From a virus, in the UHGV virus genome UHGV-1729168: DNA of 13,353 nucleotides; one strand, given 5' to 3'. A program made the position numbers. Positions 1 to 3,000 of this stretch are shown here, in pieces. Each line of letters begins with the position of its first letter. Positions within the stretch are counted from its first letter, which is position 1.

Positions 1-3000
1 CCACTACCTGCGAAACAAGCAGACCAAAGAGTTCTTAGCCGAGCTGGAGAAAAACCACGAATCTGTGGTTTTTACTGAGCGCGGTGTACACGGTGGAACA
101 TATGGCGGGAAGTTTGTTGCTTATGATTATGCAGCATGGCTAAACCCCGGATTTAAATATGCAGCCTATAAAGTCCTGGATGACTACTTCACCGGAGAAC
201 TCCAGCATCGCAACAGCTTAAGTGCGCAGCTCAATATGAAGTGTCATGAGTTTGATCAGAAAAAAGATATGGCGAGCTTCTGCGGGCAAGGCCTTGCGGC
301 ATGGCGCTACACGAAACCTGGTTTGATCGCTGAGATTAACTCCCTGGCTAACCAGTTGCAGATCACAATCCCCGGGCTTCCGGGATGAGTGATCGTGTCA
401 TTGAATGCGCCTCCAGAGCGGGGCGCGACTTCTCAGCGTTCATGAAAGGCGAGAAGGGCGTGATGGAAGCATTGGCCTCGGTGGATGAGTTTGGCGAGCA
501 GTTGCGCCTCAACGGCTGTGTCAATCATCACTTTGTCAGCTACATGATGCGGAACTCGATCATGCAGGCATTCATGGACATGGCAAAAGCCGAGAAGAAA
601 GAAAAGCGCCGGTGTAAGCGAGCGGAAGCAAAAGCGAAGTAGCCATTACAAAGCCCATCTACTGGTGGGCTTGATAATGGCTTATACCCTGCACGGGATA
701 ACTTAACTGATATCCTTTTTAACGGATAAAGGTATTCAAGCCTGACATATCATGCGCTGTATCGTCGCCGTATTCCCGCATTAACCATGACCGCAGCCCG
801 ACCGGGAGACTCCTCTGCGCGAGTGTGCGGGGATAATCAAAAACGATACACACCGGGGTTTACCGCGTTAACGGAGCGCGGCGTTGTCCCCTCATGGTCG
901 CTGGTCCGGTGCGATGGTGGAAGAAACCGGACGATGTGTTACCTCGCAAGCTCTGTTATGTCATGTGTCTGATTTGTGATTTAAGTCGGATAATTGTCGT
1001 TGCCATTAAACAGAGGATTGATGACCGACAGGGTGGCATTGTTAGAATAAGACTTATTCTTATCTGTGCCGGGAATGAAAATGAAAAGAAATCTTCCGTT
1101 AATTATTTTGTTGTCTTCTCTGGTTATGGGCTGTACGCAACATAAAACAGATATGCCCCGACAGTTGGTTAAGGCATTACCACAATATCCGGCCTATGCA
1201 GCGGCAAATTATATAAAGGGACGGGTTGATGTGAAGTTTGATATTGGTGCTGATGGTACTGTCACCCGAATTGAGTTTATCCGTTCAGAGCCGCACCATT
1301 TGTTTGATGAGCAGGTTGTAAAGGCGATGGCAAAATGGCGATTTGAGAAGGACAGGCCGTGTAAAGGCGTGAAGAAAACGTTTATCTTTAGTCCTTCTGC
1401 ACCCTGATTATTTCATCAGAAATTAATTATCACTCTGTTGTTATTCTGTACATCCCGGCAGGGTAAGTCTTGTTCCGTCGGATATGAAGATGAAATATTG
1501 TTGGAGGACAGTGGGTACCTGCTCCTGTAACCGAACGTTCATTTCTCGTTATTTTTCATGCTGGCCGGGCGCAGATGCGTTGCATCTGTTGCCAGCCTTC
1601 TCCTGCAGGCTTCAATAACCCACGCTGAAAAGTTACCGGACCCTTTATGCTCAAGGGCGATGTTGATCTGTTCAATTATGTGATTGGGGAAACGGATATT
1701 GCGGGTTGTGGTTCTGCGGGTCCGGTTTTTCGATGACATATTTATTTCCTTTACTGATTGTCATATGACGGGGATTTTACATGGCTGAGCTTCGTACACT
1801 CCAGAGCAGAATCAAAACACTGAATACCCGACGGGTGAATATTCTGAAGGGGGAACAGCGTCGTGTCAGTGGCAGTGCACGTGTTTCCCTCAAGCGTCAT
1901 ATCTGGCTCAGGGACGCCGGGCAGTGCTGTATCTGTGGTCGTGTGGTTGACCTCTGTGACAGTGAACTTGATCACCGAATTGCACTTCAGTTCGGTGGTG
2001 GTAATGAGGAGACGAATCTCTGGACGCTCTGTACCGAATGCCATCGACAAAAGTCTGCTCGTGAAGCGGCGGGTGGTATGCCGGACCCGACGCTGCCGGA
2101 GGTGTCCGGAGGTAGTGGCAGAGCGGACGACATCATCGGACTGTAACCCGACCCGGGGGGGGGGATCATCCGGCGTAAAAAACGATCGCTTTGGACACCG
2201 CGCCCCCTCTCACGCAGAGAAAAAATTCCCGTTTCAGGGCAGTTAACATGTTAACTGGCTGCCCGGGCATTTTTGCGGTTTTTATCTTTATTATTCAGTT
2301 TGTTGTGCGGAAAAAATGTTAACAGGCTTTTTCAGCAAATGTTAACCAGGCAGCAGTTAACATTTGCGGCATGAGACGCCGGGAAAAATGGGCTGAACCA
2401 TACCCGGCTGAGTGCGTTCTGGACCCGGGAGGAGGCTGTGCTGACAACGCAAAAACGAAAATTTGCGCTGGCGCTCATGTCCGGGAAAAACAAAACAGCG
2501 TCAGCCATTGCCGCCGGTTATTCGGCGAAGACCGCCAGGGTTAAAGGCTCGCAGCTGGCAAAAGATCCGGAGGTGCTTGCGTTTATAGCCCGTAAACAAT
2601 GCGAGACGGTGGAGGTGGATGAGGTTCCTGTTTACCGGCAGAAAAAATCAGAGCAGGAGGATAAACCCCGTCGCCGTGAGGCGGCTGCAATACCACAGCC
2701 GGACGAAAACAATCCGGAGATGCCACCGTCCGCGGTGATGTCTCCTGGTATTGAATATATGGAGGATGGTCTTCCCGATCCGGTGAAAGCCATGGGGCGG
2801 ATCCTGGTGGAAAACCTCTGCATTGATCCGAAACTGGCACTGGATGCGGCCTGGCGTCTGGCGCAGTTCACACACCATAAAAAAGGCGATGCCGGTAAAA
2901 AATCGGCAAAAGGTGATGCCGCGAAAAAAGCGGCTAACCGTTTTGCGGTACCACCACCACCACGACTGGTGGTGAATAACGATAATGAGGGCAACGGATG

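Follow-up and report, generated by a model that had tools for sequence, protein, structure and literature searches.

The gene pair at the start of the window

The window analysed here, 13,353 nucleotides of the virus genome UHGV-1729168 (13.3 kb), is the late region of a lambdoid E. coli prophage. It shows 96-97% identity to phage JLK-2012 (Marienburgvirus) over the compared regions and is also close to several Shiga toxin (Stx)-converting phages. At its beginning, between Rz and the terminase/packaging genes, lie two overlapping genes: a KilA-N gene cut by the window edge (gene 1) and a gene for a protein of 85 amino acids (aa; gene 2). The features of the pair and its downstream edge were as follows.

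2..388, + strand: KilA-N gene, 5' end removed by the window edge (translation, Pfam)
385..388, + strand: ATGA start/stop overlap, preceded by CCGGGATGA, without a convincing Shine-Dalgarno sequence (sequence)
385..642, + strand: 85-aa gene (translation, PHROG)
641..682, + strand: strong stem-loop without a T tract, beginning in the last two bases of the stop codon of the 85-aa gene (fold -30.6 kcal/mol, z -5.5)

On the + strand, frame 2 has no stop codon between base 2 and the TGA at 386..388 (128 codons plus stop), and this interval is the 3' two-thirds of a 165-aa KilA-N + ORF11CD3 gene homologous to hkbK of phage HK620. Pfam domain calls were accepted above the curated gathering score. KilA-N (PF04383) was matched by residues 1-64 of the fragment with 31.8 bits (cut-off 23.8) and by a full-length relative with 58.6 bits, which confirmed the KilA-N identification made in the first-pass annotation. 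ORF11CD3 (PF10549) was matched by residues 72-124 with 47.3 bits (cut-off 25), over model positions 1-54 of 54. These were the only two domains in gene 1; ANT/KilAC, AntA, P22_AR_N and P22_AR_C were absent by Pfam. The product matched PHROG 129, a 'transcriptional regulator' (E 5e-61), and the ORF11CD3 region gave further PHROG matches labelled Rha-like regulator and anti-repressor. The DNA-binding KilA-N fold also occurs in fungal APSES factors. In the two closest relatives, one with 99.6% DNA identity (L002, 5891-6388) and the other L014, the gene is an intact open reading frame (ORF) of 165 aa. Therefore, the upstream frame is not interrupted in these relatives, and the pseudogene that the first-pass annotation had allowed for can be dismissed.

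The ATG at 385..387 opens an 85-codon ORF that ends at 642 on the + strand. This ORF is a genuine gene under purifying selection, because the median ratio of nonsynonymous to synonymous substitution rates (dN/dS) was 0.095 (296 sequence pairs, 33 distinct alleles), PHROG 875 was matched over the full length (E 1.3e-51, residues 1-85 on profile positions 1-85), 120 homologues were found in a collection of 5.8 billion proteins, and the AlphaFold2 model had a mean confidence (pLDDT) of 93.9. Its conservation as a coding sequence, on which the first-pass proposal depended, is thus seen in the dN/dS value, the PHROG 875 match and the 120 homologues. The statement that the protein has no recognisable family was wrong. 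It is HK620 hkbL, PHROG 875 and RefSeq WP_001283919.1, which RefSeq annotates as a hypothetical protein, and, as described below, the N-terminal domain of T5orf172/GIY-YIG proteins is a homologue of its core.

The 85-aa gene was present in 426 of the 5426 complete E. coli genomes, and its neighbour was a 'KilA-N domain-containing protein' in every case among the matches listed. When 1.84 billion representative proteins were searched exhaustively with a profile, just 21 clusters were found for the family, and all organism-named matches were Enterobacterales. The allele of the window is a minority form with 5 substitutions relative to the common form, including Cys76 in the tail. Two altered copies (P0108, P0115) were also observed, and both look like products of cassette decay or rearrangement: the HK97 copy has a frameshift after residue 54, and a Salmonella ORF on 281 contigs has the first ~42 residues of the small protein fused to the C-terminus of an Rz-type lysis protein.

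The 85-aa protein (9.7 kDa) was modelled with helices at residues 3-20, 26-42 and 48-84. Residues 1-66 form an acidic three-helix core with an isoelectric point of about 5.2-5.5, and residues 67-85 are a basic extension of helix 3 with a net charge of +6 to +7. The last 18 residues are KAEKKEKRRCKRAEAKAK, as the first-pass annotation had reported for the basic tail, and the nucleic-acid or membrane interaction suggested there for this tail is putative. Conservation was strongest in the stretches ECASRAGRDFSxF, within helix 1, and GCVNHHFV, where helix 3 begins. Fold searches with the model yielded generic helical bundles or no significant match, and therefore the fold gives no functional clue. 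NCBIfam and a PDB sequence search returned no match, and no hydrophobic segment suggestive of membrane insertion was found in the protein. Weak hits to Pfam YqzE (E 0.18) and PADLOC QatB (E 0.02) were treated as noise. A metal site formed by the invariant columns Cys8/Cys45/His48/His49 was considered and rejected: these residues are not conserved in P0122, P0128, P0129 or ε34 gp68, and therefore they are not a family feature.

The ATGA overlap occurred in 82 of 93 fetched loci, which are mostly close relatives and hence not independent samples, and TGA-TC-ATG occurred in 7 loci with a P63C-type partner. No recognisable Shine-Dalgarno sequence was present at either junction type. A third type, behind a Rha gene, reads GAGGTTGCATGA. 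Three unrelated upstream genes thus stop at, or no more than 2 nucleotides (nt) from, the start codon of the small gene, and for this reason the junction pattern fits termination-reinitiation. The start/stop overlap, the weak or absent Shine-Dalgarno sequence and the conservation in relatives are those of a translationally coupled pair. The coupled, conserved gene pair of the first-pass annotation was therefore upheld by the 82 ATGA loci and the junction alignment. The ATGA is no proof that the small gene is a dedicated partner of this KilA-N gene, since the same allele stands behind KilA-N+P63C genes and a distant homologue stands behind Rha.

In consensus scans of the + strand, neither the pair nor the sequence just ahead of it contained a sigma-70-type promoter, and a scan found no intrinsic terminator after the pair. 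The simplest reading is that the pair would be transcribed by read-through of the Q-antiterminated late transcript.

Exchange with T5orf172 genes and change of partners

The weakest significant matches of the exhaustive search were two proteins of 164-179 aa (P0128 and P0129). Both align with the 85-aa family over ~60-70 N-terminal residues, and in both the C-terminal half is a T5orf172/MUG113 domain of the GIY-YIG superfamily. The same architecture was found in ε34 gp68, g341c gp64 and HK106 gp64 (PHROG 4284). The profile of the 85-aa family matched ε34 gp68 with an hhalign probability of 94.9% (E 4.6e-8), and the T5orf172 fusion proteins gave reciprocal matches to PHROG 875 with E values of 1e-6 to 3e-9. 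HK106 gp64 alone was not significant in hhalign; it belongs to the same PHROG as ε34 gp68 and g341c gp64. A word-indexed search with the two fusion N-domains alone returned no match, and the broader profile search listed close relatives only. On these profile matches, the core of the 85-aa protein is homologous to the N-terminal domain of the T5orf172/GIY-YIG proteins, and to that domain only: Pfam found no T5orf172/MUG113 domain in the 85-aa protein.

The proteins ε34 gp68, g341c gp64 and HK106 gp64 of temperate enterobacterial phages, homologous over their N-terminal ~60 residues, occupy the same slot with the same flanks. In each of them, a single polypeptide carries the T5orf172 domain at its C-terminus, whereas the protein of the window carries the basic helical tail instead and has no nuclease-like domain. 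Colinearity between HK620 and ε34 extends to the start codon of hkbK or gp68 and resumes after hkbL or gp68. The hkbK-hkbL pair and gp68 have the same DNA on either side (84% and 96% identity), and one is an exact replacement for the other. An exact replacement of the pair by a T5orf172 fusion gene was also found between mEp234 and HK106. At one further locus the fusion gene lies between lysis and terminase genes (L102), and at another it lies within the tail module, beside a KilA-N+P63C gene and an Arc/Arc/Bro-N cluster (L094).

Iyer, Koonin and Aravind (2002) reportedly described a KilA-N/Bro-N domain-shuffling network. ORF11CD3 and P63C are listed members of this 'Bro network' (PMC10111431), and KilA-N, Rha and T5orf172 are recognised members together with them (PMC10111431; PMC8096241). 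The upstream partner of the small gene was KilA-N+ORF11CD3 in most loci. A KilA-N+P63C partner of 242-251 aa was found in HK022, mEp234, Scandinavium, Raoultella and Trabulsiella, and a Rha-family partner was found in a metagenomic Arc-Arc-P22_AR_N-Rha cluster, with the more distant homologue P0122. The C-terminal regions of the three partner types showed no detectable mutual similarity, so that no common docking domain can be named. In mEp234, the small gene behind KilA-N+P63C is 97% identical in DNA to that of the window, and the homology begins ~15 nt inside the ORF. Therefore, the small gene was recently recombined onto another partner.

The recombination point just inside the 5' end, with one allele behind two kinds of partner, would suit an explanation without any functional partnership. 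The small gene would then be an independent moron-like gene that uses the ribosomes of the upstream gene and has an unrelated target; the homologous domain also occurs fused to a nuclease domain, without KilA-N in that protein. Against this, every intact copy of the small gene examined stood directly behind a Bro-network gene and none stood alone. Moreover, the Klebsiella phage vB_Kpn_RAH1 carries both genes, with the 4-nt overlap kept, between its major tail and tape-measure genes, so both were taken together into the tail module, and the fusion P0128 itself neighbours a KilA-N+P63C gene. We regard the absence of a partnership as unlikely. The pair is mobile as a unit, and as a cassette of temperate enterobacterial phages it is usually located between lysis and terminase genes.

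Several phages carry a more distant KilA-N+ORF11CD3 gene in the Rz-terminase slot without the small gene, namely phiEt88 (hkbK, 52% identity), ST64B (sb54) and the P22-like SE1. The downstream genes of two of them, ST64B sb55 and the 119-aa gene of SE1, were tried as remote homologues of the 85-aa protein and rejected (hhalign probability <1%). HK97, a viable phage, carries a frameshifted copy of the small gene beside its partner. Since the small gene is missing in the former phages and broken in HK97, a morphogenetic role of the pair appears very unlikely. The description of the pair as accessory rather than morphogenetic in the first-pass annotation agrees with the mobility of the module, its replacement in sister phages, and the absence or frameshift of the small gene elsewhere.

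The same observations bear on a Kil/anti-kil or abortive-infection pair, in which the KilA-N protein would be toxic to the cell or to competing phages, as for P1 KilA and BstA, and the small gene would be the antidote. A four-base overlap with a small helical second gene is typical of toxin-antitoxin operons, and the KilA-N part gave a weak local match to the PADLOC defence candidate PDC-S22 (E 8e-9). That match spans only ~30 residues of the shared KilA-N domain. An antidote is also difficult to reconcile with toxin candidates that lack it in phiEt88, ST64B and SE1, with a small gene that stands behind unrelated partners, and with the tolerance of HK97 for a frameshifted copy beside its partner. 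Neither an antitoxin-type DNA-binding domain (Pfam) nor an autoregulated promoter (scan) was found. For type II toxin-antitoxin systems in particular, Pfam, NCBIfam and PADLOC returned no toxin fold and no ribbon-helix-helix, helix-turn-helix or AbrB antitoxin match; the small protein is a plain three-helix bundle, and the two genes do not co-occur obligately, gene 1 being found without gene 2 and gene 2 with other partners. BstA is said to be a prophage defence protein that contains KilA-N. It reportedly has ~300 aa or more, with a KilA-N-like N-domain and a BstA C-terminal region, and is expressed in the lysogen near the immunity region. Gene 1 has 165 aa and an ORF11CD3 C-terminus, lies in a late operon without a promoter match in the scan, and matched no BstA model in PADLOC. 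A toxin-antidote function has, in our judgement, only a slight chance of being correct.

An antirepressor module is another candidate, with a KilA-N protein that inactivates its own or a co-resident CI-type repressor and a small protein that modulates it or helps it to fold. Relatives are often annotated 'antirepressor', and the PHROG labels of the ORF11CD3 region, Rha-like regulator and anti-repressor, point the same way. P0122 comes directly after the Arc-Arc-P22_AR_N-Rha cluster, which resembles the P22 immI region, and P0128 adjoins both KilA-N+P63C and Arc/Arc/Bro-N. However, gene 1 has none of the ANT/KilAC, P22_AR_N/C or AntA domains by Pfam, and no Arc/Mnt-type control gene or promoter adjoining the pair was found in the window. 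Because the pair lies inside the late operon, its product would come after the lysis-lysogeny decision. No KilA-N+ORF11CD3 protein tested as an antirepressor was found in the literature searched. This role is therefore improbable.

In the explanation we favour, the two genes form an accessory cassette that belongs to the phage 'Bro/KilA network' and lies in a lambdoid late operon. Gene 2 lacks a usable ribosome-binding site, and its ATG shares bases with the gene 1 stop codon. Its translation therefore most likely depends on reinitiation, at the overlapping ATG, by ribosomes that have just terminated on gene 1. The 85-aa protein would be a free-standing copy of the N-terminal (targeting) domain of the T5orf172 'nuclease family'. 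Because T5orf172 proteins hold exactly the same slot in sister phages, the cassette may be read as a nuclease-less alternative to a homing-endonuclease-like cassette. Both products would be made late in lytic growth through read-through from the late promoter, would be dispensable for virion production, and may be regulatory or targeting factors whose target is DNA or a partner bound to DNA.

A model for such an action is CapR, a protein of the PLE satellite of Vibrio cholerae. It corresponds to the N-domain of T5orf172 homing-endonuclease-like proteins but stands alone, and it binds DNA and represses a phage gene (PMC8096241). CapR has a mass of 15.5 kDa, and a mutant in four cysteines was tested (PMC8096241). 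We use CapR as a working analogy for the action of the 85-aa protein, without a claim of sequence relationship; CapR has no overlapping KilA-N partner.

Several points weigh against the favoured explanation. The acidic core of the 85-aa protein weakens a specific DNA mechanism. The swappable upstream partner also weakens a specific mechanism and speaks against a complex that is specific to, and has co-evolved with, the KilA-N+ORF11CD3 protein. The 85-aa protein may instead interact with other proteins, or may work independently of the KilA-N protein. The late expression is a prediction from consensus scans and gene position. Finally, no papers on hkbK/hkbL as phage genes were found in the literature searched; searches on hkbK, hkbL, HK97 gp73 and WP_001283919 returned unrelated papers only. 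As a whole, a late-expressed, dispensable DNA-targeting or regulatory cassette of the Bro network is a tentative explanation that falls a little short of being probable.

A more specific version gives the cassette an 'anti-homing' function or one in competition between phages. The 85-aa protein would be a domesticated targeting domain from a T5orf172 homing-endonuclease lineage, a rival for the same lysis-terminase slot. Made late together with a KilA-N DNA binder, it would protect the cassette from replacement by masking the recognition site of the endonuclease or by repressing genes of a co-infecting phage or satellite. We give this version a slim chance.

Downstream DNA and other genes of the window

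The stem-loop at 641..682 marks the downstream edge of the cassette in many relatives, and the homology break-points cluster at 670-680. In HK620, HK022 and mEp234, the sequence of window 645-730 matches twice, ~200-260 bp apart (L006 2757..3060), and in HK620 the outer stem of the hairpin is split by an insertion. This suggests that the hairpin marks a recombination boundary. No RNA family of Rfam was found in the window.

The hairpin is followed by a 251-bp non-coding stretch (683..933). Of 5426 complete E. coli genomes, 3901 contained this stretch, typically twice (median 2 copies) and at most ten times. None of them annotates it, and it is about ten times as widespread as the pair. The first ~175 nt were near-invariant among 16 distinct copies, and 1-nt insertions and deletions among the copies exclude coding. 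The stretch precedes the packaging module whether the upstream gene is the KilA-N pair, a Rha gene or a small ORF. Rfam gave no match for it, its folding was not significant (z -0.76, +0.98), and covariation was almost absent. It might serve as a linker or mark a module boundary, or it might be a regulatory site of the late operon.

The remaining features of the window were as follows.

1081..1407: TonB_C lipoprotein gene (Pfam)
1539..1739, minus strand: DUF3950 (YlcI/YnfO) gene (Pfam)
1781..2146, + strand: HNH endonuclease gene (Pfam)
from 2438: small and large terminase, S78-protease/capsid fusion, portal, head-tail and tail genes

The pair lies upstream of the TonB_C lipoprotein moron and the minus-strand DUF3950 gene, in the position given by the first-pass annotation. 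The region 934..1528 is an insertion relative to most relatives, with a GC content of 42% against about 50% in the flanks. It contains the gene for the 108-aa TonB_C lipoprotein (lipobox LVMGC), and a promoter-like site with an extended -10 lies at 1021..1048. The gene is a classic moron. The insertion was shared only by JLK-2012, two O55:H7 genomes and two IMG/VR contigs, and the PHROGs label 'Rz-like spanin' for this lipoprotein family looks like a misnomer.

The DUF3950 gene stands on the opposite strand within the late operon, and the HNH endonuclease gene and then the terminase genes follow it. We take this order to resemble the HK97 gp74-type HNH-terminase arrangement. A single 645-aa ORF (4723..6660), flanked by the large terminase and portal genes, combines an S78 prohead protease (residues 48-153) with an HK97-type major capsid protein (386-635). 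After the portal gene, a 299-aa ORF (8233..9132) contains internal repeats (IPVPRDGRDYDPDVLQKAV twice, plus related copies) and a sub-threshold CBM_5_12 match near its C-terminus. The tail tube protein (10666..11382) carries a C-terminal immunoglobulin-like domain (Ig_2, I-set). A 137-aa ORF (12131..12544) with a lipoprotein signal (MKKFMLLIFSVSFFLTGC) follows the tail assembly chaperone genes (Phage_TAC_1, Phage_tail_T). It matched no Pfam family and is probably a second lipoprotein moron, located in the tail module.

A 2026 preprint describes the small RNA PasB as embedded in a phage structural-gene operon and gives three representative RefSeq phages for PasA-D, including NC_049945 (10.64898/2026.05.13.724894). 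NC_049945 shares the late region of the window.

Known systems and meaning of the cassette

The same two genes occur as hkbK/hkbL in HK620 and are also present in the Stx phages 1717 and 2851, in JLK-2012 and in ECP1 (WP_024185488 / WP_001283919). HK620 hkbK has 95.8% protein identity to the gene of the window, and hkbL has 97% over residues 1-66. The ATGA overlap and the slot between Rz and packaging genes are as in the window, and there is no material difference besides the minority small-protein allele. P1 kilA shares ~30% identity with gene 1 over residues 17-127, and both carry KilA-N. However, P1 KilA has a KilAC/ANT C-terminal domain where gene 1 has ORF11CD3, and a small coupled partner is not described for it. 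The immI region of P22 (arc, mnt, ant) is a further comparison, in that distant relatives of the small gene occur in Arc-Arc-antirepressor clusters within late or tail modules. The window differs from immI in having no arc/mnt-like genes and no P22_AR or ANT domains.

Both genes are already catalogued as hypothetical (HK620 hkbK/hkbL, PHROGs 129 and 875). The literature searched appears to hold no description of the 85-aa domain as a Bro-network module, or of the exact allelic exchange between it and a T5orf172 cassette. The finding changes no current concept, and the genes themselves are in databases already. Nevertheless, Bro/KilA-network genes are among the commonest uncharacterised genes of temperate phages and satellites. 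The small, widespread 'hypothetical' protein is viewed here as a shuffled Bro module because it is interchangeable with a T5orf172 cassette at one locus and rides the ribosomes of three Bro-type partners. As such, it offers a concrete, testable handle on the function of the cassette, for which HK620, HK97-like phages and Stx phages are tractable systems.

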